Of a DNA stretch of 64,000 bases, positions 18,132 through 52,809 are shown piece after piece (positions within the stretch are counted from its first letter, which is position 1; every line of letters starts with the position of its first letter). Source of the DNA: Nitrospinaceae bacterium (lineage in GTDB: Bacteria; Nitrospinota; Nitrospinia; Nitrospinales; VA-1); contig JAESTE010000006.1 of assembly GCA_016763735.1 (NCBI GenBank), positions 778 to 64,777 of the forward strand, given 5' to 3'. The position numbers were made by a program, and so were the translations under genes. Under the pieces are notes generated by a model that did not search any database, had not been told where the DNA came from, and was given only the letters and a program-made list of their open reading frames with translations.

Positions 18132-18584
18132 CGAGGCCATCTCTGTTTCTATGCATGGACACGCCGCCGACGCACTGGAGTCTGCCGGATTCCCGTGTGT
18201 GTGTGCCATCACCAAGGTCCACCTGGCCACGTCCAACGACGCCACCGCACTGTGGGCCCCGGACGACGACACGCAGAACCCAGGAGGGGTGTGGCTGATT
18301 GTGAGTGCGGCACAGTTCTCGCACTGGAGGCAACAAACCGCGTACGCCAGTCATGGTGCAACAGCTGTATTCAATGTGTGCAGAGGCACAGGCAAACCGG
18401 CTACAGTGTACAGACGTATCGGCAGCGAGACACGACGGTCTATGGCGACCGGGTCCTCTTGGCGCTCCTGACGCTCCTGGCCTCGGGCAGCCTGACGTGG
18501 ACCCATCCACCGGAACACGGGCGTGAAGGGCACACCGTGAAGCCATTTTGCTTGTTGAATACACACTTGTGCATCGTGCAGTAG
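18100..18584 (+). CDS. candidate small spliced membrane protein (speculative)
   Basis: Exon 1 is 18100-18300 (67 codons, G/C-rich third positions) and ends exactly at GTGAGT (18301). An 83-nt candidate intron ends at tgtgtgCAG (18383). Exon 2, 18384-18584, continues in an open frame that encodes a hydrophobic span (RVLLALLTLLASGSL). The gene would overlap the 3' ends of both neighbouring genes. Confidence 0.3.
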
Positions 18585-19648
18585 CGTATCGAAGGACTGA
18601 GGTTGCGTACACACGACTTGCACATCGCCAGGCACATGGTCTTGGTGTCGTAGCGGAAGGTATCCGCATCGGTGCCGATCCCCACCTTTAAACACCCTTG
18701 CACAGCGCATTCGTCCCAGCGGGCGTCGCGGCAGTCTCTGCACAACAGCAGCAGGTAATCAGACCCTGCGCTGATCACCACGGCGCAGTCCACACACGCG
18801 CCCAGCGGCACGTCCATGGCCTCGGCGATCTCCAGCAGACTGTTCAGTGCCCGGTGGAACGCAGCGCGACGGAAGGTCAGGTCGGTCAGGGCGTAGACGC
18901 TGTCCAGTCCCGCTGGGCCCAACTTGTCCCCTTGTGCGAGGACACGGTCCTCAGTGCACAGTCTGGCGTCCAGTGTGACAAAGGTTGGGGTTACCAGGCG
19001 GCAAGACGTGCGCTTGCCATGGTTCCCGAACCAACATTCCTTGGCCCCCGCGTTCAACATGACGGAGTGGGCCTGGCAGTATTTCGTACCGATGGTGGCA
19101 CACAGCTGGCACACCTTCATGTTGGGATTGTTCTCCGTGCAGAAACTGGTGTTGGACGGGCAGATTAATTGGGGACAGTCGCTTATGTCACATGGCGTAG
19201 GCACCACTGCACAGTCGGTGCACAGCCTGTGGTCGTGGTCGCAGAACACCTTGCGCGGTTCTTCCTCCATGTACCGGAAGCACAGGTTGCACTGGTAGGT
19301 GTCGACAGACGGGTCGGCGGCCGCAAAGGCAGACAGTATCGACCGTACAGATGCCTTCAGCCCGTGCACGACAGCGCCCAGCTCGACAGCCGTAGGCAGT
19401 TTCGCCACCGACAGGGGTCCACAGGTGGGTGACGAGGCGGTTGAACGGACGATGGGTTCGGTGTCGGGCACCTTGACTTCTTCTTGTGACTTGGAGTTGT
19501 GCGACAAGGTGGTATGGTCGTCGTCAGGGTCGGGCGGGGACAACATCTCCACGTCGGGGTCGGTCCTGAGCCGCTTGGCACTCCATGGGACCTTGCTGTG
19601 GTCTTCCTGTTGTCTCGGTTGTTTGCCAAGTGAAACCTTCATCGACAT
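18440..19648 (-). CDS. RING-like / cysteine-rich zinc-finger protein
   Basis: The track ORF extends to 19711 across the promoter motif cluster. The ATG at 19648 (MSMKVSLGKQ) lies just downstream of that cluster. CNLCFRYMEEEPRKVFCDHDHRLCTDC fits C-x2-C-x12-C-x3-H-x2-C-x2-C. Many further CxxC/CxxxxC pairs follow. Confidence 0.55.
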   Translation of the reverse strand: MSMKVSLGKQPRQQEDHSKVPWSAKRLRTDPDVEMLSPPDPDDDHTTLSHNSKSQEEVKVPDTEPIVRSTASSPTCGPLSVAKLPTAVELGAVVHGLKASVRSILSAFAAADPSVDTYQCNLCFRYMEEEPRKVFCDHDHRLCTDCAVVPTPCDISDCPQLICPSNTSFCTENNPNMKVCQLCATIGTKYCQAHSVMLNAGAKECWFGNHGKRTSCRLVTPTFVTLDARLCTEDRVLAQGDKLGPAGLDSVYALTDLTFRRAAFHRALNSLLEIAEAMDVPLGACVDCAVVISAGSDYLLLLCRDCRDARWDECAVQGCLKVGIGTDADTFRYDTKTMCLAMCKSCVRNLSPSIRYCTMHKCVFNKQNGFTVCPSRPCSGGWVHVRLPEARSVRSAKRTRSP

Positions 19649-19687
19649 GGACGGTTGGAATTGTCCCCGAGAGGATCGGCACACAGA

Positions 19688-19722
19688 GTCGACCATCAAA
19701 GTCGACACCACACAGAGTCGAC
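19688..19722. promoter_or_regulatory. cluster of three GTCGAC(T) motifs upstream of the RING-like gene
   Basis: GTCGAC at 19688, 19701 and 19717. In gene sense this reads GTGTCGACTCTGTGTGGTGTCGACTTTGATGGTCGACTCTGTGTG, 40-75 nt upstream of ATG 19648. Confidence 0.5.
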
Positions 19723-19749: not shown

Positions 19750-20385
19750 TTAAAGCAAAAACAGGTACTCCTTGAACTCCCGGTATTGACGAGTCAGTCC
19801 TTCTTCGAGTATACGTCTGACGTTCATACTGTCGTAGTTGGGCCACAACAGCGCCTTGAGTGTGTCGAACTTGCGGTTCTTCAGCGCCATCATGGTGCAC
19901 TCTTCCCCTACCGGACACCCCACAACCCTCAGCCAGCTTAGGAAGGGTGTGTGCCCATTCGCCGCCGCAACGTCAAAGTCTCCTCCAATGAACCGTACAC
20001 CTCTTGCGTACAACCACTTTGCAATGTGAAGATGCCCTGCCCGGGCCACCGCTCCCCTCATACTCCATTCATACCGCGAGTCGACTTTGAACATGTACTC
20101 AACTACGTCCAGGTGTCCGTGCCTGGCCGCGGAGACGATCATGTTTCCACTGCCGGCCCAGTTACTGTGCCAGACGAGCTTGAGCAACGGTGGATACCCC
20201 AGTTTGTATGCGGTGTCAACTGTGCTGTACTTCTCCAGACAGTAAGGGTCCATGAGCAGGTGGTCACTGGTGCACAGGAAGGTCTTGATGTAGTGTGCCA
20301 CGTCCCGGCCCACGAGCAGTGCGACGTACGCCATCCCGTGTCTCTTGGGGGTGAACAGGCTGTCATCCCGCTTGTGTTTCGGCAT
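19750..20385 (-). CDS. ankyrin-repeat protein
   Basis: Degenerate ANK repeats: AARHGHLDVVEYMF, AVARAGHLHIAKWLYARGV, AAANGHTPFLSWLRVVG. The first ATG after the promoter cluster is at 20385 (MPKHKRDD). The track ORF start at 20433 lies inside the GTCGAC cluster. Confidence 0.7.
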   Translation of the reverse strand: MPKHKRDDSLFTPKRHGMAYVALLVGRDVAHYIKTFLCTSDHLLMDPYCLEKYSTVDTAYKLGYPPLLKLVWHSNWAGSGNMIVSAARHGHLDVVEYMFKVDSRYEWSMRGAVARAGHLHIAKWLYARGVRFIGGDFDVAAANGHTPFLSWLRVVGCPVGEECTMMALKNRKFDTLKALLWPNYDSMNVRRILEEGLTRQYREFKEYLFLL

Positions 20386-20419
20386 CTTTTTGTGGCAGTT
20401 GAAGTTGTGAAGTGTGTGA

Positions 20420-20454
20420 GTCGACGCCCACACAAAGTCGACACCAAAGTCGAC
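20420..20454. promoter_or_regulatory. cluster of three GTCGAC(T) motifs upstream of the ankyrin gene
   Basis: GTCGAC at 20420, 20437 and 20449. In gene sense this reads GTGTCGACTTTGGTGTCGACTTTGTGTGGGCGTCGACTCACACAC. It forms a roughly 50-nt block about 90 percent identical to the block upstream of the next gene (21178-21250). Confidence 0.5.
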
Positions 20455-20463: not shown

Positions 20464-21177
20464 TTAATTAGACGGAATGTCGTTAACATACTGCGACTGT
20501 CCGTTCGCCGGCTCCTGTAGAATCTCAAGAACCTGAGCGACTGGGTCTGACCGCAGACGTTCATCCTCAACCAACTGTTCGAAAAGCCGGCGTTTTCCAA
20601 CGAATTGCGTATTCTGATCCTTTGTCAGTGGGAACAGTTGATAAAGACGCCGAAGGTCACGTACGAGAACATTCGCGTCCCTGTTGGCGTCTTGTCTGTC
20701 CACCAACCGGATTCTTGCCAGGTAATCCATCACACTCTCTCGCTTGAACGATGGCTCCTCTACGTCAAGGGGTTTGACCTGCGCCAGCACCCGTCGAGCT
20801 TCACACGCCATTTCCTCGAGCAGAAGGTGGCGATTAAATCGTCTGTGTTGCTCCTCTGTTAGCGGGAACATACGTCGGATGCCGCTTACGACTTCCTCGT
20901 GGTTCTTGCCGCGGAAAAGCCCGACGATGGGTGCGTCTGACATCTCCGTGTCAGTTTGAGTACGATCATCAGGTTCCATAGAGTGGTATTGCACATCTGA
21001 CACACGTATTCGTCCGTACAGAATATCCTCAATCTCGTCCAGATCGCCGTGCGTGATAATGTGTTCGATGGGGTTGTCGCCCAGAAGGTTGCACCGCGGT
21101 TGGCCGGCTTTCCAATAGAGTGCCGCGACGACAACTGCAGCCGATACCAGCCAGAACACAAGTGTCGACCTGTTCAT
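20464..21177 (-). CDS. signal-anchor (type II) membrane protein, unknown function
   Basis: ATG at 21177 gives MNRSTLVFWLVSAAVVVAALYWK, an N-terminal hydrophobic anchor. Internal duplicated motif FPLTEEQHRRF / FPLTKDQNTQF. ATTAAA (20463-20468, minus sense) overlaps the TAA stop. Confidence 0.6.
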   Translation of the reverse strand: MNRSTLVFWLVSAAVVVAALYWKAGQPRCNLLGDNPIEHIITHGDLDEIEDILYGRIRVSDVQYHSMEPDDRTQTDTEMSDAPIVGLFRGKNHEEVVSGIRRMFPLTEEQHRRFNRHLLLEEMACEARRVLAQVKPLDVEEPSFKRESVMDYLARIRLVDRQDANRDANVLVRDLRRLYQLFPLTKDQNTQFVGKRRLFEQLVEDERLRSDPVAQVLEILQEPANGQSQYVNDIPSN

Positions 21178-21206
21178 GCGGTAGATTGAAGGTGTGAGGT
21201 GTGCGA

Positions 21207-21323
21207 GTCGACACCCACACAAAGTCGACATCTGGGTCGACGTCGACTTGGGGGTCCACTCCACACTCCACCAAAGTCGACCAACATGTCGACTTACGAA
21301 GTCGACATCGAAGGCATGTCGAC
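21207..21323. promoter_or_regulatory. divergent promoter region with eight GTCGAC motifs
   Basis: GTCGAC at 21207, 21224, 21236, 21242, 21276, 21288, 21301 and 21318. The region lies between the minus-strand ATG at 21177 and the plus-strand ATG at 21286. The last three copies fall in the first codons of the plus-strand gene. Confidence 0.55.
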
Positions 21324-23076
21324 TCATGTGCATCGTGCCTTGTCATTGCGCCACATGGACCGCTCCGAGCTGAAACGCAGGGTGCCGTACTCGATCAGGG
21401 GACCCCAGAAGTACGTCCGGGAGTTGCACGAACGCTACGTCAACACGATACGTGCGAACTACCCTGCCCTGGCCGACGTGACCTCTGTCATGGTGTACGA
21501 CACGTCCCAGATGGATTGCCGGTCACACATCCGTGCCTTGCCGGTGCGTGCGCTGGTCAAGTGTATCACCACCAACACCCGCTTCCTGTTCATCGTGTTG
21601 GGTAACGCTGCCGACCGCAACGTCTCGGTGTGGGGCTGGCTGGACATGCAGTGGTTCACCTGGTGTGTGCTGGACGCCTCCCTCAAGACCCAGCTGGGGG
21701 TACGCTCCAACCAATGCACCAAAAACCCACCCGTGCACACGTCGTTGTGGCAGACCAGCATCGCCACCAACCTGTCGCTCCCCACCGACTGGAAACCCCC
21801 CAACCAACCCATGGACCTGGGTACCTTGGACTTTGTCTTGCGTCAACACATCTTCTGGCTGGGCTGTGTGCGCAGCAAACTACCCCTTCCGTCTGCTGCC
21901 CTGCTGGCCAACGACGACGCCGTAAGAGAGGACGAGTGGGCCGCCACCTTCCTGTGCTACATGGCCAGCTACGTCTACCGTGTCCATGCTCCTGCCGCCT
22001 GGGAAGCCTTTGTGTGGCGCTGGAACGTGCTGGAACGTCAACTGTTCCGCCTGCGTCTGAGTCGTGCACACCGACACAGAGTGGTGCCCCTGGCGTCCCA
22101 TATCCTGCGCACCAACCTCAAGAGGTACCGAGGCGTGGCGGCTCCGGTCGTAGGGCAGCGTGGTCTGCACATCCCGGCGTTCAGTGTGCCCTTTGAAACC
22201 GTGCCGTACCTGGTGTCCCGTCGTCTGGTGCCCTTGAAGCAGGGACAAGCACTGTTGTCCCCCATGCAGCTGGAAGACTTGGTGGTGCAGAGGTTCCAGC
22301 TGGTAGACCCCTTCGGAGACGGACGCCCTCACTACTCCACGTGGGACTTTGCCCAAGACAAACGCTTCGCCGGCCTCAAGCCTCACCTGCAGAAGCTCCA
22401 GCTGGCAGTACTGGGCACCTCTCCCTCTGAGTCTACCCCCGAGATTGCCCGTCCGCCTCTACAGAGCGCGCTGCACTTCACCCCCTGCATGGTGGCCATC
22501 CACAAGAAGTGGCCTCACTTGCGCTTTGGTCCGCGTCAACTGTACGGCAAGGTCATGTCGCTCCTGAAAGTGTCGTTGCCCTACCTCCAGGGTGTGTGGA
22601 CTGGGCCGTGGCGCAGACACTACGAGAAGAACGCAGAGTCCGAGTCACGCAGCATCGTGGCCTTTTGGAAGAGCCAGCGCAAGCACGTGGACACCCGCGC
22701 GGCACTAGACCCTTCGCATGCCGGCCCTACGTGTCGTCAGATGTGTTCGGCCCACCTGTGCCCCTTTGCCACGGCTACTGACCCACTGGAAGCACAAGAC
22801 TCGGGACGTGCCCGGTGCAGCATCTCTATCGGGTTGCGCAAGGCCGGAGACATTACACACGTGTTCCACAAGACCACTGTATTGAGGCAAACGTTCAGCA
22901 GGCAAGCAGTGGCGGTCGACAAGAAGCACCATCTCGCCGACGAACTGGCCCGTGCACCGCCCACCCGTCCCGTTCCACCCCCTGTGCGCATGATCAAGCG
23001 GATGCGTCGCACGGTTACTGTAGACTACGACGTGAACGAGATGGACGAGAAGTCATCGAATGAACGAAAGCATTGA
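21286..23076 (+). CDS. eukaryotic/archaeal-type DNA primase large (Fe-S) subunit-like protein
   Basis: ATG at 21286 (the upstream part of the track ORF is promoter). HFTPCMVAIHKKWPHLRFGPRQLYGKVMSLLK matches the PriL signature HFPPCM...HLR..GRQQ..LFLK. About 80 aa later, GPTCRQMCSAHLCPF matches the ..C...GCPF Fe-S ligand region. References are yeast Pri2 and human PRIM2, recalled from memory. Confidence 0.5.
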   Translation: MSTYEVDIEGMSTHVHRALSLRHMDRSELKRRVPYSIRGPQKYVRELHERYVNTIRANYPALADVTSVMVYDTSQMDCRSHIRALPVRALVKCITTNTRFLFIVLGNAADRNVSVWGWLDMQWFTWCVLDASLKTQLGVRSNQCTKNPPVHTSLWQTSIATNLSLPTDWKPPNQPMDLGTLDFVLRQHIFWLGCVRSKLPLPSAALLANDDAVREDEWAATFLCYMASYVYRVHAPAAWEAFVWRWNVLERQLFRLRLSRAHRHRVVPLASHILRTNLKRYRGVAAPVVGQRGLHIPAFSVPFETVPYLVSRRLVPLKQGQALLSPMQLEDLVVQRFQLVDPFGDGRPHYSTWDFAQDKRFAGLKPHLQKLQLAVLGTSPSESTPEIARPPLQSALHFTPCMVAIHKKWPHLRFGPRQLYGKVMSLLKVSLPYLQGVWTGPWRRHYEKNAESESRSIVAFWKSQRKHVDTRAALDPSHAGPTCRQMCSAHLCPFATATDPLEAQDSGRARCSISIGLRKAGDITHVFHKTTVLRQTFSRQAVAVDKKHHLADELARAPPTRPVPPPVRMIKRMRRTVTVDYDVNEMDEKSSNERKH

Positions 23077-30449: not shown

Positions 30450-30806
30450 ATTTGGACTTTGACTTTTGGAATTATGAACCAAAAGCCAAGTCGTCGACCA
30501 CCAAGTCGACTCAAGAATGGGAAAATTTGGACGACCACCGGAATATATCAGGATGGCCAAAATTTGGACGACCCTCCCCGATCATCCTCTTGGCCATTTT
30601 TTTGACACCACACCAAAAAGTCACAAAGAGGTGGAAAACACCGGACACAACCAGTTGAACTTTTTGTTTTCTTGGGTGGGGTGCACTTCAAACTTTTGAG
30701 AATCTTGATAAATTCCGGTGGTCGTCCAAATTTTGTCAATCCTGAGTCGACTTGGTGGTCTTCGACTTGAACTTTTCGTCACAATTCCAAAAGTCAAAGT
30801 CCAAAA
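30450..30806. repeat. imperfect inverted repeat (103-bp arms) forming a mirror-symmetric divergent promoter
   Basis: Left arm 30450-30552 and right arm 30704-30806 are reverse complements at roughly 80 percent identity by eye. Each arm carries GAGTCGACTTGGTGGTC and AATTCCAAAAGTCAAAGTCCAAA. The region is locally AT-rich. A third copy of AAAATTTGGACGACC lies in the spacer. Confidence 0.75.
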
Positions 30807-30831: not shown

Positions 30832-32669
30832 ATGAAGCGAGCAGCCGAAGAGATGGGTGCGGTGCACAACGAACGTGTGCGCAAGGCGGTGTGCCCCAAC
30901 GAACTCCATGACGACGTCGCAGGGATCGCGAGTCGTTCCTTGAACACCTTCAAGGTTACGTTGGTTCGAGCCCCCCGTGAAATCGACTCCATCCACATGA
31001 CGGCCCGGGAGTACTACATCAACGCAGAGTTTGCGAGTTTGGTACGCAGAGGGGACATCTACAGGAACGAAGACTGGGAGAGCCTGGGCGGATCCACGGT
31101 ACGTCGCTCGGTACGTCTTTGTGTGCAGCCTTCTGTGTAGAGGGACACGCACTGACACACGACACTTGTATGCATACACAGACCACGTTGTCCGACGTGT
31201 TCACCCCTGGTCTACCAACTGGAGGCATGTGTGACCCGGACATGGCTGGAATACAGACCCTCATCAACCCCTCCACGACCTTCACGTACAGGTCCCGCGC
31301 AGTGAACCGGTACGCTAACCTCACCCACGCCTTCCCTCCTGTGGCCACCCGCCCAGGCTTCAACTTGTATGCGTCCTACACCCCGCCGACTGCGGCCCAT
31401 CCACGTCTCACCCACACCCGCCTGGACCTGCACTGGCTGCGCATGGACGTGAGCGACTTCCTGTCACGCGCTGTGTTCGACACCGACGACACGTACACCT
31501 CGTACAACGTGGCGGTCAATGCCATCACGGTGGGGATCTACAAGGCGTGTCTGGCCCGTGTCGCTTCCAGTATGCACTGCCGGGGAGACCTGAACAAGTT
31601 GCTACGGGATGACGCAGATGGCATATCGGTCTTTGCCCACGCCCTTCTGCCCGCGGTGTGTCTGCCTGGCATGGATGTCGACGTCAACACAGACGTCATC
31701 ACGGTCCGTGAACCCCTGACCTCACTTGAATCCTTCTCGTTTGTCTTCGGGCCACCCAAGGATGACGACCCCTCCATGTTGCCTGGCATGCGCAAGAGGT
31801 ACACCGTCCCCCGGATCCGCCACATGGTCACACACATTGCGCTAGGCAGATGCCACGACCTGGAGGAGGTGTACACGTACATGTGCCAAGGGAAGGGCAC
31901 CCCCACCATTGCCTTGGCCACGCCCAGCTCGGCGACCGGTCCCCTGGGCGACCAGTCCAGTACAGTGATCATTGACATGCTGTTCGCCAACACTCAACTG
32001 CACGAGATGGGGTTGATCACCACGGCTGACCTGTGCCCCCACGACCCAGGCGTGGTCTTCATAGACTGTCGACTGTCCTATGCGTCTGTCGGCCTCGTTG
32101 ACTACGTGCTCTACGTCAAGTACGTCACCATCAAAGGCATATGCTTTGACCAAGGCACTCAGTGTATCCTGATGACCGTGTCCATGGACCTGGCAGCGGT
32201 GGCGTTCGAGCGGAAAGGGCAGCACATCCAACTACACGACGAAGTGTACGACAGGGTCGTCTACCGTGACACCCTCGTTACCGTGAACGTGACCTACGTC
32301 CTCAACCGACGGGTGCCGGTACACACGTCCATGGCCACCGACTGCCGCCGGTACAAGCAACACGAGTTGGGTCACCACAAGACTCTCTTTGCGTGGAAGC
32401 AGTATGGCTTGTCCATCAAAACACACGACCTGCCCTTCCCTCCCTACAACAACCCAGGCATGGTCACGAGTCGGTTCGAGACCGAGGTCCGGGATTTTGT
32501 GACCTGTGACGGCGGAGGCATGGGCTGGTTCATTGTACGCTCTGTGGCCCACCGCATTGGGACACAGAACTTGTTGGAGAGTTCCATGGACCAAGTCACT
32601 GACCCGCACACACGCAAAACACACACCTTCCCCGCTGACATCCACAACCTTATCCTGTCGTACGTGTAG
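30832..32669 (+). CDS. family A protein, paralog 1 (spliced, two exons)
   Basis: Exon 1 is 30832-31098 (ttcaccATGa). The intron is 31099-31181, with an alternative donor at 31111. Exon 2 is 31182-32669. It shares TADLCPHDPG and the C-terminal FPADIHNLILSYV motif with the genes at 40829-42748 and 42832-44310. Confidence 0.6.
31099..31181 (+). other. 83-nt (or 71-nt) spliceosomal intron
   Basis: ACG|GTACGTCGCTCG|GTACGTC...TGCATACACAG|ACC. Both tandem GTACGT donors (31099 and 31111) keep the frame. The acceptor at 31181 joins the frame of track ORF 30718..31140 to that of ORF 31119..32669. Confidence 0.55.
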
Positions 32670-33755: not shown

Positions 33756-34766
33756 TCATTTCCCGTGGTAATGCATGAAAAAGCTTTTGGCAATCGCCAT
33801 TGACCTGTTCAACACGTCCAGTGACGTGTCGCGGGCCCACACGGTCCCGGCGGTTTGTGCAATAAACATGAGTTGTGCCCCTACCCACATGGCCAGGTTC
33901 TCCCGCACGTTAGGCCTGGTGATCAGCTCCACAAACAGCAGCTCCCCTGATTCACGTGACGTCTGGGTGCGGACAAACAGCAAGGCGTTGGTCATGGCGC
34001 CCAGGATACTGTCCTCAAAGTAGGGCGTCAGGCGGTCAATGGAGATCATGTGGTCTCGGGCCGCCCCTCCGTCAGCCGTGCGCTTGAACGTGTCTGCCCG
34101 GGTCGCCGCATCAGGGTCGGGCACACGCTGAAACTGCTCCACGGTGTGGTTGCTCTGTGCCGCCACCAGCCGGGCGAACGAGGTGAACTCACGCACAAAC
34201 AAGGGCGGGCCTTGGGCCATTTGAGCGGCCTGGTACGTGCCGGTGGGGAAGGGGAACACCAGCTCGTCCTCTGCGTCCATGGGTACAGGCCGGGCCGGAG
34301 CAATCCGCATGCGTGGGGCCCCGCCTCGACGTACCCGGTACAGTTCCAACGTGACCTGGCGCAAGTCTTCGTAGTTCAACCCGCTCAGTACCGGGGCGGC
34401 GTACGCAGCCACCTCCTCTAGCCGAGCCCGGTCCTCTTGCTGGAGTTGCTCGCCTCGGGACCCGGGGATAAACCGTGCGACTTGAGGGGGCCGGTTCACG
34501 TCGGACTCCTCTGCCTCGTCCACCCTGTGCAGCTCCTCCTGGGTCCCGCGCCCAAAGGGTTGTACAGCAGGGTCGTCGTCTCCTCTGCGTCGAGAGGGTG
34601 CGGCCCGGACAAAGGGCCGAGACTTGAGCTCGCGCGCGAACAAGGCCAAGTTGCGGTCCACTTTTTTGCGCCACTCGTCTAGGCGGAGCTTGGACACGCC
34701 AGGGTTCTCCCCGAACTCGGGGGGCCCTAGTTTCCTTTTGCTCCTGGCCACACGTGCCGCGGCCAT
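33756..34766 (-). CDS. hypothetical protein (336 aa)
   Basis: The track ORF starts with TTG at 34832. The ATG at 34766 is in ctaccATGg; an alternative ATG at 34811 has a weaker context. Basic N-terminus (ARSKRKL). No motif recognised. Confidence 0.55.
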   Translation of the reverse strand: MAAARVARSKRKLGPPEFGENPGVSKLRLDEWRKKVDRNLALFARELKSRPFVRAAPSRRRGDDDPAVQPFGRGTQEELHRVDEAEESDVNRPPQVARFIPGSRGEQLQQEDRARLEEVAAYAAPVLSGLNYEDLRQVTLELYRVRRGGAPRMRIAPARPVPMDAEDELVFPFPTGTYQAAQMAQGPPLFVREFTSFARLVAAQSNHTVEQFQRVPDPDAATRADTFKRTADGGAARDHMISIDRLTPYFEDSILGAMTNALLFVRTQTSRESGELLFVELITRPNVRENLAMWVGAQLMFIAQTAGTVWARDTSLDVLNRSMAIAKSFFMHYHGK

Positions 34767-34815
34767 GGTAGATACATCTCTACACACCAAGGCATCCGTG
34801 TGTACAAGCATCTGT

Positions 34816-35388
34816 TTAATTTCCGTCCGCAATGTGCTGGATCAAACGGGACACGTGAGGGTGCAACAACGCTTGCTGCATGGGGTTGTGTACGTAGCGA
34901 GGCAGCGGCACCCGGGCCAGCATGTTCTCAAAACTGTGTTCGCAACTCTTCAAAAAGGTGGCGGTGCGCAGGATGGCCTGGGCCTCCAGGTGCACGTGTC
35001 CGGCGGGCATGCGTGTCTTGTGTTTCCTGCGCTTGACTGGCGTCGCCACCACAGGAGCCGGCGCGATGTATTCGTTGACTTGGTCCAAAGGCGGCACCAC
35101 CACGGCTACGTCACTGGACATGGGCGGCACCAGCTTCTCCAGGGTGTCCATGCAGTCGGTCTCCTCCTCACACACGCCCTTCTTGAGGTCGTTCCACCTC
35201 TGCGCGGCGTCAGCACTGGCGTGGGTGACCCACCCCACGTATTGTTTGATCAGACCTTTGGTGTCTTCGTGTGGCTGCAGTCCCCCGGCCGTGAGGACCG
35301 CGTGCAAGTTCCACTTCATGTGGTCGGGGTCCACCCCTCCCAGTTCAGCCGAGGCAAACTCGCGTCGTTTCTTGTCCAGTGAAGACAT
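34816..35388 (-). CDS. hypothetical protein (190 aa)
   Basis: The track ORF starts with GTG at 35391; the ATG is at 35388. ATTAAA (34815-34820, minus sense) overlaps the TAA stop. No motif recognised. Confidence 0.5.
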   Translation of the reverse strand: MSSLDKKRREFASAELGGVDPDHMKWNLHAVLTAGGLQPHEDTKGLIKQYVGWVTHASADAAQRWNDLKKGVCEEETDCMDTLEKLVPPMSSDVAVVVPPLDQVNEYIAPAPVVATPVKRRKHKTRMPAGHVHLEAQAILRTATFLKSCEHSFENMLARVPLPRYVHNPMQQALLHPHVSRLIQHIADGN

Positions 35389-37380: not shown

Positions 37381-38574
37381 TACAAGTCTGCAGCGGCTGG
37401 GTCGGCCCGAAATCGCTTTTGCGCGCGCTGGATGATTTCCTTTGCCATCTCGCCTACACACTCACGTATTCCGTGCATGGCCTGCTCGTCGTGAGTGGCT
37501 TGTGTTCGGAGCAGGGCGTCGCGTGTCCTTTCCAGAACCTTCCGTTGACGGTCGTTCTCGTCGAGGTCTCCTAGAACGACCTTTAGATCGTCCTCGACGC
37601 GCTTCCGGGCTTTGTGCATTTTGGGAACCATCGTTGCACGATACCGCTGGTACGCCAGCTCCTCGAACGTATCCATTGCACTGCGTGTCTTGCTTGCCAA
37701 GGGAGGCGTCCGCACGTTGGGAGTTGCAGCGGATGTCTTGGGGTTGCTGGACGAAGAGGATGCAGAGGCCGGTGCCTTGGGACCGCTGGGCACAGGGGGC
37801 GCGACGGCTGCTGCTGCGGCGTGCTCCCGTACCTTGATGGTTGGTATATCCTGGGTGAGGTTGACCACGTGCGCCTTCATATGTTCGGTGGCGGGCGCCC
37901 GGGATGCAGCCTCAGGTACCGCGGCTGGCGCGGGGTCCTTCTCGTCCTGGTCGTCCTCGCTCCTGTTCTGGTCGTCGTCTTCGCCTCGGCTGCGGACAAA
38001 TGCACGGTTGTCTTCGGTGTCGTCTTCGGTATGTTCGTCGCTGTCTCCTTCGCTGTCTTCGTCCTCCTCGTCCTCCTCGTCGTCGTAGTCGTCGCTGTCT
38101 GTGCGCCCAGACACTGACCGTGCCGTGACACGTTCACCTCCATCTTTGCAATGGTTGCAGCGTTGCTTCTCGTATCGCAGTCCACGCAGATAGCGCACAT
38201 CGCTCGCGCACCTGCACATCAAACCATGTCATGCACGGCTCACTGCGCGCCACACAAGCAGCAACTCACTTGGCGCAAACGACCACGCGACACTCGACAC
38301 ACATCCGGCCGTTCACAGCCAGTAGGTCCTGGCCTGACCACACAAGTTTTGTGCAACACACGACACAGTCGAGCAGCCAGCCTCTGTCCACCCGCGGAGG
38401 ACACGCGTTGCGCACTTTCAAGCATTCCTGTACGCAAAGATCACCACACCTGATGACATGCACACCTCCACACCGCGCATCCACCTGGCAAATCGAGATC
38501 CCCGGGACACCGGGCAGTTTGTGGTGGGTGGTGAGCGGGTGCGCACCTTGGGTGCGGCAGACCGCACAAGTCAT
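37377..38574 (-). CDS. cysteine-rich zinc-finger / acidic coiled-coil protein (spliced, two exons)
   Basis: Exon 1 is 38270-38574 (true ATG, MTCAVCR...). The intron is 38212-38269. Exon 2 is 37377-38211. The splice joins AA|G so that ...CVECRVVVCA-K-CASDVRYL...CNHC reads through. CxxC pairs lie on both sides of the junction. There is an acidic tract and a C-terminal helical region. Confidence 0.6.
38212..38269 (-). other. 58-nt spliceosomal intron
   Basis: In minus sense the sequence reads GCGCCAA|GTGAGTTGC...TTTGATGTGCAG|GTGCGCG. The donor removes the TGA that ends track ORF 38266..38574. The phase-2 junction fits the frame of ORF 37377..38222 exactly. Confidence 0.6.
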
Positions 38575-38843
38575 GACGACACGCCTGCACGGTGAAGGGT
38601 GGTGTCAGGAGACGTGCACACACACAACAACAAGGTGGCGTACGGCATCTTCCCAGAGGTTGCGCGGTTTCCGCGGATACCACACATAAACCTATCCCAC
38701 ACAAAATCCCGAACGGACACGGACGGGCACACGGGCTGCAGCGCCTCGGCCGATCAGGTCATGCCAATCGCGACAACCAGAGTTCCAAGTCACGGGTTGT
38801 GTGGGTGCCGCTGGGGGTCTCGATCCGATCTAATCTTGCCACC

Positions 38844-40120: not shown

Positions 40121-40181
40121 ACTTGACGTGAACCCCCTGTACACATTTGAATTTACGAAAGTATTTCTCAAGTCTTCCGCG

Positions 40182-40710
40182 AAGTATTTCCTAAGTATTC
40201 GACAAGTATTCCTTCGAGAGACTTGAGAAATACTTGTTGAATACTTGAGAAATACTTGTCAAATACTTTGTACCGAGATTCTGCTGAAGTCCGATCGAGA
40301 GGGGGGGTAGGGTCTTGTTCCCCCCTAACCGACCGGTGCCTTTTCGGTGAATAAATAGGTTCACCTTTTGTGACAGCAATCAATTAACCGAGATGTCAGG
40401 AACCGTGAAACCTATAAGGTGGGGTTTTATGATATAGTCGGTAGATGATTGACTGGTACTATGCACAGTAGGACTAGTCCATCCTGGATTAATACCCAAA
40501 CTATACCCCGGGGATAAACCTATTTACCGTTTGAGAACATAGTCCCGAAAATACACCGATCGGTTAGGGGGGAACAAGACCCTACCCCCCCTCTCTATTG
40601 GACTTCATGAGAATCTCGGTACAAAGTATTTGACAAGTATTTCTCAAGTATTCAACAAGTATTTCTCAAGTCTCTCGAAGGAATACTTGTCGAATACTTG
40701 AGAAATACTT
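40182..40710. repeat. large imperfect palindrome (157-bp arms, about 215-bp AT-richer centre)
   Basis: Left arm 40182-40338 and right arm 40554-40710 are reverse complements at more than 90 percent identity by eye. The arms are built from AAGTATTTC/GAAATACTT sub-repeats plus GGGGGGTAGGGTCTTGTTCCCCCC. Weaker symmetry continues inward (40345-40365 versus 40512-40530). The element lies in the 708-nt gap between convergent genes. Confidence 0.85.
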
Positions 40711-40828
40711 GGTGGAAACCTTACAAAAACTTCAGCTCGACTCGCAACACTACGAAGTGCGAACCTCCTCAGGATGAACGCAGAGAAAAGGGGGTGCACA
40801 GGAGACTTGGGAAATTTCTCAAAAACCT

Positions 40829-42786: not shown

Positions 42787-42808
42787 GTCGACACCCAACT
42801 GAGTCGAC
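42787..42808. promoter_or_regulatory. two GTCGAC motifs upstream of family A paralog 2
   Basis: GTCGAC at 42787 and 42803. In gene sense this reads AAATGTCGACTCAGTTGGGTGTCGACATTTC, 40-60 nt upstream of ATG 42748. Confidence 0.45.
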
Positions 42809-44310: not shown

Positions 44311-44312
44311 GA

Positions 44313-44403
44313 GTCGACAGCAGGTCAAGTGAACGTTTGGGATAATTTTACATAAAACATCGACTCAAGTCGACACCCGAGTCGACTCCTAACACAAGTC
44401 GAC
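44313..44403. promoter_or_regulatory. cluster of four GTCGAC motifs upstream of family A paralog 3
   Basis: GTCGAC at 44313, 44369, 44381 and 44398, with a fifth at 44285 inside the coding start. In gene sense this reads AATGTCGACTTGTGTTAGGAGTCGACTCGGGTGTCGACTTGAGTCGATG. Confidence 0.5.
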
Positions 44404-45192: not shown

Positions 45193-45197
45193 TTAAT
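45192..45197 (-). terminator. ATTAAA hexamer bridging a stop codon and the next start codon
   Basis: In minus sense the sequence reads TGATTAAATG. TGA is the stop of the nuclease gene (45199-45197), ATTAAA is 45197-45192, and ATG starts the next gene (45192-45190). The poly(A)-signal role is inferred. Confidence 0.35.
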
Positions 45198-46813
45198 CAG
45201 TGAACGTGCGAGTCGTATCGTCGGTTCTTGGTGCGTTTCACAGTGCGCAAGTTGGGGTCGGTAACAGTCTCAGCAGGGCGTTTGCGCACCTGGGGATTGA
45301 ACGCGTCGCGCTCGAACTCGTCCTCCTCTTCCACCTCCTCCTTGGACTTGTTGTAGTCATGGGTCTTGCGACGTGCCACGGGTTTGGGTACCTTGCCGTT
45401 GGCGGGGGCGTACGACGCGGCACGCTTGTAGTCAGGGCGGGCACCCAGCATACTCGCGTTGGGAGGGAACAGAGGGGTGCTGGCCGGCGCAGTGAGACCC
45501 GGTGCCGCGGCCCGGGGCGGTGCAGACAAGGGGTGCACCATGACAGCGTTGCGGGTGAAGGCGTCGAACGTCATGTCGAAGCGCTTGGGGTCGTTCCATT
45601 CCAAGGTCCAATACTGCAGGTTGAAGCAGATGGCGTTGTAGGCTTTGCGCAACATCTCGCTGCGGGGTACACCCGGACGCAGACCTTTGTGTTCGCTGGT
45701 CTCCCACAGCCGCTCCAGCGACGCCAAGACCAGTCGTCTGCCACTCTTCTCGCTGCTGTCGGGGACGGACGTGTTGTACCCCCACTTCTTGCCGTACACA
45801 AAGCGCACGATGTTGACGAAGCGGCTGATGGAGACCTGGATGTTGCCGAGTCGTCGGCGTACAGGGGCGACCCGTTGGTACTCTTCAAAGATCTCGAACA
45901 ATTTGTCACAACCGAACCCGTGCAAGATCTCCTTCTTCACCACGTAGTCTGTGCCGCACATCACCACCATGGCCATGAACTCGTAGATGGTGATGCCGCG
46001 TTTCTTGGTGAGGTGGGTATGGATGGTGCCAATGTCGCAACGCCACTCCTGCCAGTAGCGCAGCGTGATCTTGGGGCGGCGTTGGAGGGGCATGCAATCG
46101 TACACATGCAGGAGGATGGGCATGAGGTCTGAGTCGATGCTGCGCACCACAATGTGCTCCTTGGCGTGGGACACACGGTTGACCCAGTAGGGGATCTTGA
46201 GGTCGGCTTCTCCAAAGTGGTTGTCGGGGGTCGACAGTAGGGTACGCCCCTCGTCTGTGAAGACGTAGGCGCCTTCCTCGAAGTGATCGAAGACCAGGCG
46301 GCATCCATGAGGCACCGCCAGCTTGTGGTCTTGCCACGCATCGATGACGTAGCGCCACAGCGCCGACCTCAGTACTCGGTTGGACATGACACACCGTATG
46401 TCCATGCGGGTGGGTTCAGATTCCACTCCTGTGCCACTGTCTGGTAGGCACACGCCCACGTCGCTGAACTCAATGTCGACGGGGTAGGGTTTCACGTCGG
46501 GGTCTCTGTTGTTGTCCCTGTTCTTCTGCTCCACGGCCTTCTCGCGTGGCACCCACTTCTGCAGGTCGCAGCACAGGATGACGGTCACCACGGCTCCTGA
46601 TTCGAACATCACCCGGGCCTGGCTGTAGACAAAGTCGCAGATCTCCTTGCCCGAGAAGGTGAAGTCTCCTTGAGGTCCTCGGGCCCGGATCACGTCTGTG
46701 AGGAGGTCAGAGATCATGACTCCACGTCGTTGGTGCGACGCCGTCTGCGAGAAGGCGTTGGGGCACCACTTGGGGCCCCTCATCATCTTGCGGATTTTAG
46801 TGTCGATTCCCAT
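45197..46813 (-). CDS. FEN1/XPG-family (flap/5'-3') nuclease-like protein
   Basis: MGI... N-terminus in cgaccATGg context. Acidic N-domain (VILCCDLQ). FGEADLKIPYWV...HIVVRSIDSDLMPILL fits the XPG-I motif (EAExx...DSD). FMAMVVMCGTDYVVKKEILHGFG fits the H3TH motif (GxDY..i.GiG). Basic C-terminal tail. Confidence 0.7.
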   Translation of the reverse strand: MGIDTKIRKMMRGPKWCPNAFSQTASHQRRGVMISDLLTDVIRARGPQGDFTFSGKEICDFVYSQARVMFESGAVVTVILCCDLQKWVPREKAVEQKNRDNNRDPDVKPYPVDIEFSDVGVCLPDSGTGVESEPTRMDIRCVMSNRVLRSALWRYVIDAWQDHKLAVPHGCRLVFDHFEEGAYVFTDEGRTLLSTPDNHFGEADLKIPYWVNRVSHAKEHIVVRSIDSDLMPILLHVYDCMPLQRRPKITLRYWQEWRCDIGTIHTHLTKKRGITIYEFMAMVVMCGTDYVVKKEILHGFGCDKLFEIFEEYQRVAPVRRRLGNIQVSISRFVNIVRFVYGKKWGYNTSVPDSSEKSGRRLVLASLERLWETSEHKGLRPGVPRSEMLRKAYNAICFNLQYWTLEWNDPKRFDMTFDAFTRNAVMVHPLSAPPRAAAPGLTAPASTPLFPPNASMLGARPDYKRAASYAPANGKVPKPVARRKTHDYNKSKEEVEEEDEFERDAFNPQVRKRPAETVTDPNLRTVKRTKNRRYDSHVH

Positions 46814-46898: not shown

Positions 46899-47918
46899 AT
46901 GGACCCGAACACGCAAGATACCGACCCGGCGTCCCGTGCCCAGCGCAAGGCAGACCGGGCCGCGGTGCGTGCGCTTCGACGCCTCAAGCTAGAGGAGAGG
47001 GCACGCAAGAAGCGCAAGAAAGCAGTCAAGGTGTCGACTCCTGCGCCTCTTCCGCTCCCGGTGTCGACTCCGCCAGAATCGACAGTTTACCCCGGTGAAC
47101 TCCCTGACTACTGGGCCGGACGTCGGGCAGCGGTGCGTGCACACCTCGAAGCCACGCGAGTCCCGGGCTTTGTCCCCCCTTTCAAAAGAGTGTGGCATAT
47201 CCCGGGGTACTGGCGCAAGGCCTGCGTCCTGTTCCGCACCTGGTACATCACCAAGTGGTGTGAGTCAGACGCGGCGAAACGGTTTCGTTTGATGTCTGGT
47301 GCAGTGTCACGACGTCTGAGTCACGCTCAAGACACCCTACCGGTGAACTTCCGCTGGGTGCAGTTGCTCTGCAACTACCAGGACCCCGAGGTCGGAGACT
47401 CTTTGGTGTGGAATTGGGCTCAGCAACTGACTCAAGTGGAGACATCTGAGCAACTGCAACACGCTCTGGACCACACCCCGCACCTGACAGGTGGACTACT
47501 CAAGGCTGTGCTGTTGGCTGCGCTGTGTGACACCACGGCCAAGACCCTGTTGAAGAACTCCATCGCTCCGTGTCGTGTGGGACTGGGCACCTTGCCGCGC
47601 AACACCAAGAAAGCGAGCAAGGCTGTGCGTCAGCAACATGAAGAGGATGCCACCTACGCCGGGTTCTCGCCGACCTCCCAGCAGGCTGTACCTGCCAGAC
47701 TGCCTCGCGCCCCCGCAGCCCGAGGTGGTCGCACCGTCGTCGCCAAGAAGAGGAAGAGGGTCGGGGGAGGTGGCCATGGCCATACAGGGAATGGACGGGC
47801 TGCTGACCACGGACGGGACAGTGTTGGGGTCCGACGCAAGGTCCATGCCTCTGGCCGAGACTCGGGAGTCGGTGGAGACAGGAAGCAGTCTGGACCACGC
47901 CCGCCTGGCCAGCTCTAA
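46899..47918 (+). CDS. hypothetical basic protein (3' end uncertain)
   Basis: The first ATG clear of the divergent nuclease gene is at 46899 (MDPNTQDTDP); an alternative ATG at 46812 overlaps the opposite-strand ATG within CCATGG. Third-position G/C is strong up to about 47690. After that the +1 frame, which carries the next gene, looks more coding. Confidence 0.4.
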   Translation: MDPNTQDTDPASRAQRKADRAAVRALRRLKLEERARKKRKKAVKVSTPAPLPLPVSTPPESTVYPGELPDYWAGRRAAVRAHLEATRVPGFVPPFKRVWHIPGYWRKACVLFRTWYITKWCESDAAKRFRLMSGAVSRRLSHAQDTLPVNFRWVQLLCNYQDPEVGDSLVWNWAQQLTQVETSEQLQHALDHTPHLTGGLLKAVLLAALCDTTAKTLLKNSIAPCRVGLGTLPRNTKKASKAVRQQHEEDATYAGFSPTSQQAVPARLPRAPAARGGRTVVAKKRKRVGGGGHGHTGNGRAADHGRDSVGVRRKVHASGRDSGVGGDRKQSGPRPPGQL

Positions 47919-48942
47919 CAAGTGGACGTACCGTGAGAAGTGGGCCTTGTACAAACTCTACCGCTCCATGTGTGCCCACTTGACTCAACGCGTACGGTTC
48001 CGTTCCCTGCGCCAACCACACACCTGCACCGCCGACTGCCACTTCTACTCTGCCCGCCGCCTCAACCGCTACTTGTCCATCTGTAGTGCGTCGGGGACCG
48101 TGCACATGTGTGGGCCCAGCCGGTGCCAGAACATCCTGCGTATGCACGACACACAGGTGTGTGGGCTGACCTCGGTGCAGATGAAGCTGGAGCATGCCCA
48201 TGCCCTGCCGGTGGGCAATTACATTACGTCGCACTGGCCTGACCACATGGCCTTGCGTGGCAGCCGCGCCTACCACAGACGACTCAGACAGAAACGCTTA
48301 GGACCTTGGGTGGTGTTGGGGCCACGTGAACTGGAGCAGCAGAAGCGACGCGAGGCCAAGGGAGGAGGACGAGTGAGGGAGGTGCGGGCGCGACGCAGCA
48401 GGTTGTCGGTGATGAGTGACCTGTCAGACAAACGCGTGACCCAGTCTCGTCTGGACAAGTTCCGGGAAACCACCAAGGCCATCCTGTTGCGCACCAAGTT
48501 CAAGCCCACCTCTGAGCAGTTGGAGGAACTGGTGCAGATGTGCGAAGACATGTGGCGGCTAGTGGTGCAGAGCAAGGCGTACCCGTTCAACAGCTTGGCG
48601 TACAGTGCCGTGTACCATTGCCTCGTGGTGTTGTACTGTGCCAGCGAGGGGCTGTGCTTGACTGTGGCCACTGACGACCCTGGAGGAGAGGGAGTGGAAC
48701 GGTTTGTGATCTTGGAACAGTCCCAGTTGCTTCACGACTACATGCCTCTGCGTAACGAGTGTGCCCCTCCGTTCGAGAGCAAGCAGCTGACAGCCATGGA
48801 GCGTCGTTTCCTGGACTGTATGTCTACGTGTTCCGCCAAGTCCATGCACGAGTACACAGATCGTGTGCGTGGGCGTGCCGGGCCCGCGTGTACGGCCTCT
48901 GCGGCCTCCAGCAGTGACACACAGATGCAACAAAGCACATGA
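47638..48942 (+). CDS. Cys/His-cluster protein, unknown function
   Basis: ATG at 47638, with an alternative at 47776. HTCTADCHFYSARRLNRYLSICSASGTVHMCGPSRCQNILRMHDTQVCG is a plausible zinc-binding cluster. Basic coiled region, then a helical C-terminal domain. Its TGA overlaps the next ATG as ATGA (48939-48942). Confidence 0.5.
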   Translation: MKRMPPTPGSRRPPSRLYLPDCLAPPQPEVVAPSSPRRGRGSGEVAMAIQGMDGLLTTDGTVLGSDARSMPLAETRESVETGSSLDHARLASSNKWTYREKWALYKLYRSMCAHLTQRVRFRSLRQPHTCTADCHFYSARRLNRYLSICSASGTVHMCGPSRCQNILRMHDTQVCGLTSVQMKLEHAHALPVGNYITSHWPDHMALRGSRAYHRRLRQKRLGPWVVLGPRELEQQKRREAKGGGRVREVRARRSRLSVMSDLSDKRVTQSRLDKFRETTKAILLRTKFKPTSEQLEELVQMCEDMWRLVVQSKAYPFNSLAYSAVYHCLVVLYCASEGLCLTVATDDPGGEGVERFVILEQSQLLHDYMPLRNECAPPFESKQLTAMERRFLDCMSTCSAKSMHEYTDRVRGRAGPACTASAASSSDTQMQQST

Positions 48943-49727
48943 AATATATGAACCTGTCTTCGCCACACTTGTGTAACGTCTCTATGGACCCGCTAAGGGA
49001 GGAGGGAGGGTTGTGTGTGCGTCGTCCCGGGACAGTAGGTCCGCCTCAGCACTACTCGTCTGCTCCCTTGGTGATCACAGCTCCCTTGTCTACGTACCCG
49101 CCTGAACAGCAGTCGCAATGGGTGCGTGTGGACTCGTTACGTGGCGTCTACACCCCGGCCGCGCAGATGCCCTTGAGGTCGTACCAGTCCACGGTGAGGT
49201 GGCGCCGACGCCGACGCAGAGGGCAGACCAAGCGTGCGTCCCCCATGTTTGCCTACCTGATGTCGTCCAAGCAACGACCGTACATTGGTTTGGCGTCCAA
49301 CCCCTTCATGCGCCTGAGGTGTCACAACAGAGAGGCCAACATGCCTTCGGGGGCCAAGTCTACCCGCAGCGGGGCGCCGCACTGGCGTATGCGTATGGTG
49401 ATTGGACCCATGTTCCGAGGCGCCGACGCGTTCCATGCGCAGTGGCGGGACGAGAGCCGTAAGTTGACGTGTCGCCTGGCGCAAGGGTGTCTCAAGGCCT
49501 TGACGTACCGACGTGACGGGCTGTGTGTGTGGGCCGATGACCCTGACGCGGTGATTCAGAACTGCCTGGACAACATGAGACGTCACCACCGGCGCCTGGA
49601 GTCCGCTCTGGCCTTCCACCGTCGTATCGCATGCCTAAGCAGCATCCCCACGCCGGCCCGCCGCCCGTCTATACTCCAAGTAGGAGAGGGGTCCCACCAC
49701 ATACACCTAACTACGAGTTCAGATTGA
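48939..49727 (+). CDS. SLX1-like GIY-YIG (URI) nuclease domain protein
   Basis: MFAYLMSSKQRPYIGLASNPFMRLRCHNRE...GAKSTRSGAPHWRMRMVIGPMF..AFHAQWR matches the SLX1 pattern FYCCYLL.S...FYVGSTPNPVRRLRQHNG...GA.RT....RPWEM..IV.GF....AL.FE.AWQ (yeast Slx1, recalled from memory). About 100 aa precede the domain. Alternative starts at 48948 and 48984. Confidence 0.7.
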   Translation: MKYMNLSSPHLCNVSMDPLREEGGLCVRRPGTVGPPQHYSSAPLVITAPLSTYPPEQQSQWVRVDSLRGVYTPAAQMPLRSYQSTVRWRRRRRRGQTKRASPMFAYLMSSKQRPYIGLASNPFMRLRCHNREANMPSGAKSTRSGAPHWRMRMVIGPMFRGADAFHAQWRDESRKLTCRLAQGCLKALTYRRDGLCVWADDPDAVIQNCLDNMRRHHRRLESALAFHRRIACLSSIPTPARRPSILQVGEGSHHIHLTTSSD

Positions 49728-52730: not shown

Positions 52731-52809
52731 GGTAACGCGAGAGAGAACTGAGAGTATGCCTTGGATCAAACCACCCACAAGAAGTCAACGAGGTCAAATG
52801 TCGACATCA

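Follow-up and report, generated by a model that had tools for sequence, protein, structure and literature searches.

The 64,000-nucleotide stretch analysed here (the window), from a contig deposited as 'Nitrospinaceae bacterium', encodes a very divergent homolog of the eukaryotic primase's large subunit (PriL). The gene is a plus-strand open reading frame (ORF) that begins with an ATG at position 21286 and ends with a stop codon at 23076, and its 596-residue product is, as judged by sequence comparison, a real homolog of the eukaryotic type. The window is almost certainly part of a contig from an uncultivated eukaryotic virus that was mis-binned into a bacterial metagenome-assembled genome, as its gene content indicates. 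The protein is probably a virus-borne, fast-evolving, orthologue-like copy of PriL that would serve as the regulatory subunit of a two-subunit primase, with its catalytic partner encoded outside the window.

The same locus is present in an independent metagenome assembly (L022; ENA ERZ23499216), which matches the window with 99.9% nucleotide identity across 4518 nucleotides. The gene call for the PriL-like ORF in that assembly likewise gives 596 residues, with one amino-acid difference. Because a near-identical gene is carried independently by the second assembly, the ORF is no assembly artefact. The two sequences differ at four of the 4518 positions, including one non-synonymous change within the PriL-like gene, which is uninformative for the ratio of non-synonymous to synonymous substitution rates. 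In GenBank the gene was cut short by bacterial gene calling: the 195-residue hypothetical protein MBL4664401.1 (JKY23_00340, 'Nitrospinaceae bacterium', 65,708-bp contig) begins at Met402 and is identical to residues 402–596. The true start of the protein may be Met11 (position 21316), where other family members begin in the alignment.

Relationship to eukaryotic PriL

The sole Pfam match of the window protein is PF04104 (DNA_primase_lrg; E = 3e-4, 20.7 bits), which covers residues 299–413. An exhaustive phmmer search of 1.84 billion cluster representatives returned 11 proteins at E ≤ 1e-3. These are the 195-residue fragment of the window protein itself, nine metagenomic relatives that share 23–31% identity with it across 130–300 residues, and a canonical cellular-type PriL fragment (P0011; E = 6e-4). 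The family amounts, in this search, to about nine clusters at 50% identity. Seven of the nine non-identical relatives that were scanned exceed the PF04104 gathering score (23.3–35.5 bits), and one member (P0008) also has a weak match to PF26466 (DNA_primase_lrg_N). The cellular-type fragment scores 102.8 bits on PF04104, versus 20–35 bits for the viral family. Comparison of the window protein with PDB sequences by phmmer gave no match, and a word-indexed search of 5.8 billion proteins with the window protein, like one that used the family alignment, recovered no other protein. No relatives were found in IMG/VR with the window protein and two PriL sub-family alignments, or in GTDB genomes with the PriL sub-family alignments and alignments of the FEN-like family described below.

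The relationship is clearest at the level of the family. A profile of ten members (A1) matches only PriL chains in the PDB, with Xenopus 8g99_C (E = 6.7e-15), human 4rr2_B (E = 2.1e-13) and yeast 8b9a_A (E = 2.3e-12) aligned over human PriL residues ~115 to ~335. When this profile is compared by hhalign with a small PriL alignment (A4, composed of human, Xenopus and yeast segments and P0011), the two align with 98.6% probability (E = 9.4e-16) over 242 columns, and window residues 243–501 pair with human PRIM2 residues 116–393. The homology therefore takes in the Fe–S C-terminal domain of PriL as well as the distal half of its N-terminal domain. Identity to cellular PriL is ~19% in this alignment, and the viral family members share only 20–30% identity with each other. 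The sequence matches are to eukaryotic PriL, and archaeal PriL was seen only among weak Foldseek matches. An earlier sequence-only reading of the window had proposed a eukaryotic-type PriL homolog from a few short motifs, and the Pfam, PDB-profile and hhalign results bear this out; the profile match that it suggested looking for exists at the level of the family.

The order of the parts is that of eukaryotic PriL (human PRIM2/p58, yeast Pri2; PF04104, PF26466), in which a helical N-terminal domain is followed by the Fe–S C-terminal domain. Four sequence patterns are shared with these proteins: VPFE...LV..R.V.L..G.A, P-C-[IM], HL[RK]F..R..YG and C...CPF. The N-terminal-domain alignment to human PRIM2 residues 116–270 takes in the VPFE/IPFA motif. 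In the most conserved motif of this domain, VPFETVPYLVSRRLVPLKQGQA, residues P302, E304, V310, R313, G320 and A322 vary little or not at all across the family. The first ~240 residues, in contrast, have no counterpart in cellular PriL and bear no relation to PRIM2 residues 1–115. This region (residues 1–242), for which similarity to cellular PriL is undetectable, contains a beta-hairpin with a conserved WG (W116–G117) and no conserved acidic residues, and it is missing from the shorter family members P0007 and P0019.

In one related contig (L001), the PriL homolog at 9501–10591 (+) is broken into two overlapping ORFs of 172 and 196 residues in some assemblies. The break follows on a change in the length of a microsatellite that codes for (LS)n, LSLSLS(LS)TRQQ, and an intact form of 362–364 residues is found on other contigs (P0019/P0004).

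The Fe–S domain and structural models

Exactly four cysteines, C401, C483, C492 and C511, are invariant in this family of low overall identity. The published [4Fe–4S] ligands of human PriL are C287, C367, C384 and C424 (PMC13255074). In the hhalign alignment C401, C483 and C492 pair with the first three of these, and C511 lies just downstream and is a candidate for the fourth. The sequence-only reading had taken the cysteines of PTC and LCPF for cluster ligands, and the alignment points to the same residues. The strings on which it relied are all present (HFTPCM, 397–402; HKK, 406–408; HLRFGPRQLYG, 411–421; LLK, 426–428; PTC, 481–483; LCPF, 491–494), and the interval of 'about 80 residues' that it gave before PTC is 82 residues from C401 to C483, compared with 80 from C287 to C367 in the human protein. 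The remaining intervals are 9 versus 17 residues (second to third cysteine) and 19 versus 40 residues (third to fourth). Because both are shorter than in human PriL, the second half of the C-terminal domain appears to have been trimmed.

The segment that follows the first cysteine includes the equivalents of several residues of the human initiation site. H411–L412–R413 align with human H300–L301–R302, R417 with R306, Y420–G421 with Y309–G310 and W460 with Y345. R417 is invariant, and the motif PHLxFxxRxxYG is conserved in the family. Human H300, R302, R306, Y345 and Y347 are the residues that we take to contact the 5'-triphosphate of the primer and the template (structure 5F0Q of the human C-terminal domain, p58C, with a primer). 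Beyond the Fe–S domain the protein ends in a disordered tail, whose basic cluster RMIKRMRR may be a nuclear localisation signal. A similar basic tail is present in family member P0005.

The full-length AlphaFold2 (AF2) model, which was built from a ten-sequence alignment, has a predicted local distance difference test score (pLDDT) of 54 and a predicted TM-score (pTM) of 0.35. The top 23 Foldseek matches of this model in the PDB are all PriL (best E = 4.9e-5), with TM-scores of 0.07–0.30. A separate model of the C-terminal domain (residues 385–532) has a pLDDT of 72 and a pTM of 0.64; PriL Fe–S domains account for 14 of its 20 Foldseek matches in the PDB, with 3q36_B as the best (TM-score 0.45, E = 1.0) and 8g9l_B superimposed over 80 columns at 3.2 Å. 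The models are consistent with PriL, though not strongly, and are too weak for judging cluster geometry. Comparison of the full-length model with the BFVD viral structure library gave no meaningful match, a result that, with a model of such low confidence, does not exclude viral PriLs in that library.

A probable herpes/mirus-like carrier

The window contains ~36 densely packed ORFs of up to 2720 residues on both strands, with 91% of the sequence coding. We found no tRNA genes in the 64 kb, no sign of introns and no recognisable housekeeping gene among the ~36 ORFs. Pfam matches are almost nil, and the exceptions are of eukaryotic type (EGF, ankyrin, a weak RING, LRR and GIY-YIG). Related contigs were recovered from several JGI, ENA and Logan metagenomes. 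Of these, L001–L011 carry relatives of the PriL-like gene and L012–L021 carry relatives of another window gene. They range from 31 to 65% GC and are as ORFan-rich as the window. Several gene families are common to the window and these contigs, at least five of them being shared with L004.

A block of three genes is conserved in several of the related contigs. It consists of a nuclease gene (45197..46813, minus strand), a gene for a cysteine-rich protein (47638..48942, plus strand) and a gene for a GIY-YIG (SLX1-like) protein (48939..49727, plus strand; Pfam E = 0.023), the last of which is up to 58% identical between lineages in the best local match. The nuclease begins with MGI and contains invariant GEADL, DSD and G.D motifs. 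In the PDB an eight-sequence profile of this protein matches FEN1 chains and nothing else (E = 0.56, over the H3TH motif), and a two-sequence profile gave no match there. Its assignment as a putative FEN1/XPG-like nuclease draws largely on motifs seen by eye, together with these weak scores. A FEN1-like flap nuclease would fit RNA-primed lagging-strand synthesis and the processing of Okazaki fragments.

The related contigs also indicate what kind of virus carries the gene. A herpesvirus-type terminase Walker A motif, TPRR[FY]GKT[YW], is encoded in L004 (16118–17071, minus strand), L013 (1–525, minus strand) and L018 (13887–14666, minus strand). Pfam DNA_pack_N matches a single protein of the L018/L019 set (E = 0.0026), in all likelihood the terminase copy of L018, and pUL15 of herpes simplex virus 1 matches the terminase family of these contigs with E = 0.8. 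A terminase exon (TPRRFGKT), a FEN1-like gene and a PriL homolog occur together on L004, which is 17.9 kb long, and L013 encodes a histone (PF00125; 584–1216, plus strand). The herpes/T4-type terminase motif is absent from the window itself and was seen in related contigs only; no HK97-fold capsid protein or portal was identified.

In our reading, the terminase motif and the histone, with their weak scores and motif matches, point to an undescribed herpes/mirus-like lineage within Duplodnaviria, and the virus of the window would likewise be herpes/mirus-like and not one of the nucleocytoplasmic large DNA viruses (NCLDVs) with a fused primase. Mirusviruses are large marine and freshwater Duplodnaviria with 25–72% GC, giant ORFs and histones (PMC12768974). 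By analogy, given the GC range, giant ORFs and histones of the lineage, membership of the window contig in Mirusviricota is plausible, although no capsid protein was identified.

The sample ERZ23499216 holds, in addition to the virus of the window (L022), a second, distant PriL-bearing virus (L008), whose homolog P0015 shares 20% identity with the window protein in A1. This sample therefore contains two or more members of the lineage. Another sample, ERZ23499281, yielded both L007 and L014.

Search for a catalytic subunit

A primase large subunit acts with a catalytic subunit (PriS) that belongs to the superfamily of archaeo-eukaryotic primases (AEPs). Pfam scans of the window ORFs of at least 195 residues, mostly at E ≤ 10 and for a few ORFs at E ≤ 0.01, found no AEP family (PF01896, PF03121, PF09250, PF08706/D5_N or PriCT); the short ORFs 34765..35382 and 38231..38689 were left out. 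A regular-expression search for AEP motif I plus motif II was negative in the window. The sequence-only reading had seen no AEP small-subunit motifs in any ORF of the window, and both types of search agree with it at the sensitivity available. The largest gap between window ORFs is 834 nucleotides, so the window has no room for an unannotated AEP gene. A PDB search with a 2310-residue concatenate of six mid-size window ORFs and most of a seventh gave nothing useful.

No AEP match came from precomputed and new Pfam scans of a further ~170 kb, made up of several FEN-like loci and the DNA that flanks PriL in five other lineages, and neither PF03121 nor D5 was matched in the scanned window ORFs or the related loci. 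The PriL-like protein itself has no PriCT, UL52 or D5 match in Pfam at E ≤ 10. We also considered a hidden AEP domain in its N-terminal ~240 residues. This candidate was rejected: none of the acidic residues in the region is invariant, no more than four strands are predicted there, and two family members (P0007 and P0019) lack it.

Among mirusviruses, the common primase is a UL52/PrimPol-like AEP (OG0000037, in 401 genomes), and one genome, MIRUS_G_0190, encodes a PriS (PF01896, E = 1e-22), both according to the PMC12768974 supplement. A eukaryote-type two-subunit primase is therefore plausible in such viruses. We found no mention of PriL or of a large-subunit gene in the accessible text and supplements of that study.

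Proposed role of the viral PriL

The gene is kept across a diverse viral lineage and is linked to DNA-processing genes. We favour, with moderate confidence, a role as the regulatory subunit of a viral two-subunit primase. The C-terminal domain would bind a [4Fe–4S] cluster, as its cysteine pattern suggests, and during viral DNA replication the protein would hold the initiating nucleotide together with the 5'-triphosphate of the RNA primer as it forms. By analogy with cellular PriS–PriL, it would pass the nucleotide and the primer end to a catalytic subunit of the AEP type bound to its N-terminal domain. The first choice for this partner would be a PriS-type AEP encoded elsewhere in a viral genome of ~200 kb or larger, and the second would be host PRIM1. 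A viral PriS ranks first because MIRUS_G_0190 provides a precedent and because the strong divergence from cellular PriL fits co-evolution with a fast-evolving viral partner.

Several observations weigh against such a role. The window protein alone falls 1.7 bits below the gathering score of PF04104 (20.7 versus 22.4), so its membership in PriL depends on the profile of the family. The C-terminal domain is much shorter than cellular p58C, and C511, 19 residues past C492, lies outside every alignment to cellular PriL. The initiation site appears to be partly, not fully, conserved: H411, R413, R417 and W460 match, but the position equivalent to human R302 is variable in the family (R/K/N/T) and human Y347 is not conserved, with S462 at the aligned position. 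The AF2 models are weak, with TM-scores to p58C of only ~0.4–0.45 and a Foldseek E-value of ~1 for the domain model. Finally, a catalytic AEP/PriS went undetected both in the 64-kb window and in ~170 kb of related contigs.

This last observation suits a different role, which we regard as possible but distinctly less probable. A viral PriL without a viral PriS would bind host PRIM1, and possibly Pol alpha, in the nucleus, where it would form a hybrid primase or adaptor, turning host priming towards viral DNA, or act as a dominant-negative subunit that stops the host's own replication. An AEP of any kind is missing from all the sequence scanned, and the nearest relatives of the protein are eukaryotic, not archaeal, PriLs. 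The N-terminal-domain segment that is most conserved within the viral family is also the segment most conserved with cellular PriL, and it falls in the domain that serves as a tight PriS-binding module (Kd 0.46 nM; PMC4434180). Import into the nucleus would be in keeping with the basic C-terminal tail, and the histone and other eukaryote-like domains of the related lineage fit nuclear replication. Identities of ~19% to cellular PriL and 20–30% within the family are, however, hard to square with binding to a highly conserved host protein. The AEP search, moreover, covered part of the viral genome only, and mirusviruses usually encode their own AEP, as represented by OG0000037 (PMC12768974 supplement).

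It is improbable that the protein serves instead as a trans-acting aid to a viral primase that is not of the PriS type (UL52, PrimPol or D5), in the way that PriCT and zinc-finger modules act in cis. In favour of this reading, the first half of the PriL C-terminal domain has homologs of equivalent function in PriCT-1, PriCT-2 and PriX (PMC5862659), and UL52/PrimPol-like AEPs are the common mirusvirus primase (PMC12768974 supplement). The window protein, however, retains two things that are missing from PriCT and PriX, the homology to the N-terminal domain and the full set of four cluster cysteines, and it has no Pfam match to PriCT, UL52 or D5 at E ≤ 10; nor was an AEP matched in the scanned ORFs of the window or the related loci. 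We know of no case in which a PriL pairs with a UL52- or D5-type AEP.

Least probable is a cellular primase subunit on a compact protist genome fragment, or a decayed or re-purposed protein without a primase role: the eukaryote-type domains on the contig (EGF, ankyrin, RING and LRR) and the weak structure models would allow it, but the ~36 ORFs in 64 kb include no housekeeping gene and no tRNA accompanies them, the coding density is 91% without sign of introns, related contigs carry the herpes-type terminase motif, a canonical cellular PriL (P0011) scores ~100 bits on PF04104 versus 20–35 bits for the family, and four invariant cysteines and conserved motifs at 20–30% identity argue against decay.

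Comparison with known priming systems

One close parallel is cellular PriL itself, from which the window gene differs in being virus-encoded and in having no PriS or Pol alpha genes in view beside it. The baculovirus proteins LEF-1 and LEF-2 form a two-subunit primase in which a PriS-clade AEP (LEF-1) works with a separate cysteine-rich accessory protein (LEF-2). The likeness lies in this arrangement, a two-subunit viral primase with a separate accessory protein; to our knowledge LEF-2 has no established homology to PriL, and no match to LEF-1 or LEF-2 was found here. The herpesvirus UL52/UL5/UL8 complex and the D5 proteins of NCLDVs are further priming systems of large eukaryotic DNA viruses, and contigs related to the window carry a herpes-type terminase motif. 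The UL52 and D5 systems differ in that they work without PriL: their AEP is of the NCLDV-herpes clade and has its accessory domains built in.

Mirusviruses resemble the window lineage as large Duplodnaviria with wide GC range, giant ORFs and histones, and differ in their usual UL52/PrimPol-like primase; one mirusvirus genome encodes a PriS (PMC12768974 supplement). Mobile elements also carry relatives of the PriL C-terminal domain that are needed for priming, namely PolpTN2 of the Thermococcus plasmid pTN2 and PriCT-1, PriCT-2 and PriX (PMC3973330; PMC5862659). PolpTN2 and PriCT are fused to an AEP catalytic domain, PriX is an extra subunit, and all are archaeal or bacterial, whereas the window protein is stand-alone, eukaryotic-type and full-length PriL-like. 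PriCT and PriX have neither the four-cysteine cluster nor an N-terminal domain like that of PriL; the window protein has four invariant cysteines and N-terminal-domain homology, and no AEP in the same ORF. PriL is thus well known and so are its relatives on mobile elements, but the literature searched gave us no account of a eukaryotic virus with a stand-alone PriL of the eukaryotic type.

Sequence features and repeats

The positions of the features of the PriL-like gene and of the associated repeats are collected in Table 1.

Table 1. Features of the PriL-like gene and GTCGAC clusters (window coordinates)
Feature	Position	Strand	Basis or remark
PriL-like ORF	21286..23076	+	596 residues plus stop; GenBank annotation covers residues 402–596 only
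Lineage-specific N-terminal region, residues 1–242	21286..22011	+	Family alignment, model
Homolog of distal eukaryotic PriL N-terminal domain and linker (human PRIM2 ~116–270)	22012..22437	+	Profile search, hhalign
Most conserved N-terminal-domain motif VPFETVPYLVSRRLVPLKQGQA, residues 301–322	22186..22251	+	Aligned to a 22-residue human PriL segment
Fe–S C-terminal domain homolog, residues 385–515	22438..22830	+	Family alignment, hhalign, model; shorter than cellular p58C
Cys401 (in TPCM), aligned with human ligand C287, family-invariant	22486..22488	+	hhalign
HLRFGPRQLYG, residues 411–421	22516..22548	+	Family alignment, PDB profile search, hhalign
Cys483 (in GPTC), aligned with human ligand C367, family-invariant	22732..22734	+	hhalign
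Cys492 (in LCPF), aligned with human ligand C384 (GCPF), family-invariant	22759..22761	+	hhalign
Cys511, family-invariant, in predicted helix, candidate fourth ligand (human C424)	22816..22818	+	Beyond the hhalign-aligned region
Basic cluster RMIKRMRR, residues 568–575, disordered C-terminal tail	22987..23010	+	Sequence
Nine GTCGAC palindromes, 6–43 nucleotide spacing (mostly 12–17)	21164..21323		Divergent intergenic region and first PriL-like codons
Other GTCGAC clusters	19688–19722, 20420–20454, 30493–30510, 42787–42808, 44285–44403, 52800–52913		Motif count

The palindrome GTCGAC occurs 61 times in the window, compared with 30.6 ± 5.4 copies expected, and 20 of the 61 copies lie in non-coding DNA, which makes up 9% of the sequence. 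The copies form clusters, mostly with 12–17 nucleotides between them, just upstream of a subset of the window genes. The largest cluster is the nine-copy array at the PriL-like gene. The motif probably serves as a promoter or regulatory element for genes of a single temporal class. It was not found upstream of the PriL homologs in other lineages.

A second type of repeat is a large imperfect palindrome at 40170–40722, where two ORFs converge; the intergenic gap between their 3' ends, in which it sits, has the lowest GC content of all. Its 178-nucleotide arms (40170–40347 and 40545–40722) are 93% complementary and are separated by a 197-nucleotide spacer. Each arm contains 11-nucleotide iteron arrays (AAGTATTYnnn) in both orientations and a G/C-rich block. 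This structure could be a replication origin resembling those of herpesviruses, or an insertion bounded by terminal inverted repeats.

Other window genes include one for a 1050-residue protein with EGF repeats (7–3159, plus strand) and one for a 1311-residue protein with a weak match to class-II fusion-protein stems (3220–7155, plus strand; Flavi_E_stem, E = 0.009; Hanta_Gc_C). An ankyrin-repeat protein (19750–20433, minus strand) is encoded near a cysteine-rich protein with a weak Sina-RING match (18440–19696, minus strand). The products of 31170–32669 (plus strand) and 40829–42748 (minus strand) are paralogs with 27% identity over 241 residues. By eye, these two and the product of 42832–44310 (minus strand) end in a similar C-terminal motif (...P..L..LV..Y), and they appear to form a multigene family. 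None of the window ORFs of at least 150 residues contains a canonical Walker A motif (P-loop); a large DNA virus would not usually go without any NTPase over a stretch of this length.

Implications for viral priming

The accepted view is that replication in large eukaryotic DNA viruses is primed by AEP enzymes that are self-contained, namely the D5 primase-helicases, the herpesvirus UL52 complex and baculovirus LEF-1/2. If our interpretation of the PriL-like gene is correct, some Duplodnaviria would run a cellular-style PriS–PriL primase or borrow the catalytic subunit of the host, and either case would add a viral Fe–S replication protein. The more tentative variant, in which the lineage encodes only the regulatory half of the primase and captures host PRIM1, possibly with Pol alpha, to make a hybrid virus–host primase, would be an undescribed route to priming for a large DNA virus, and the Fe–S cluster would have to come from the cytosolic iron–sulfur assembly (CIA) machinery of the host. 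Confirmation of this variant would clearly raise the interest of the finding. Its importance is limited by the rarity of the family (about nine 50%-identity clusters in 1.84 billion proteins). The shortened, minimal C-terminal domain could help to define the essential parts of p58C, and the PriL-like gene would be a marker for a virus lineage that current viral catalogues have missed, as it has no match in three IMG/VR scans with PriL queries and its contig is filed under a bacterial name.

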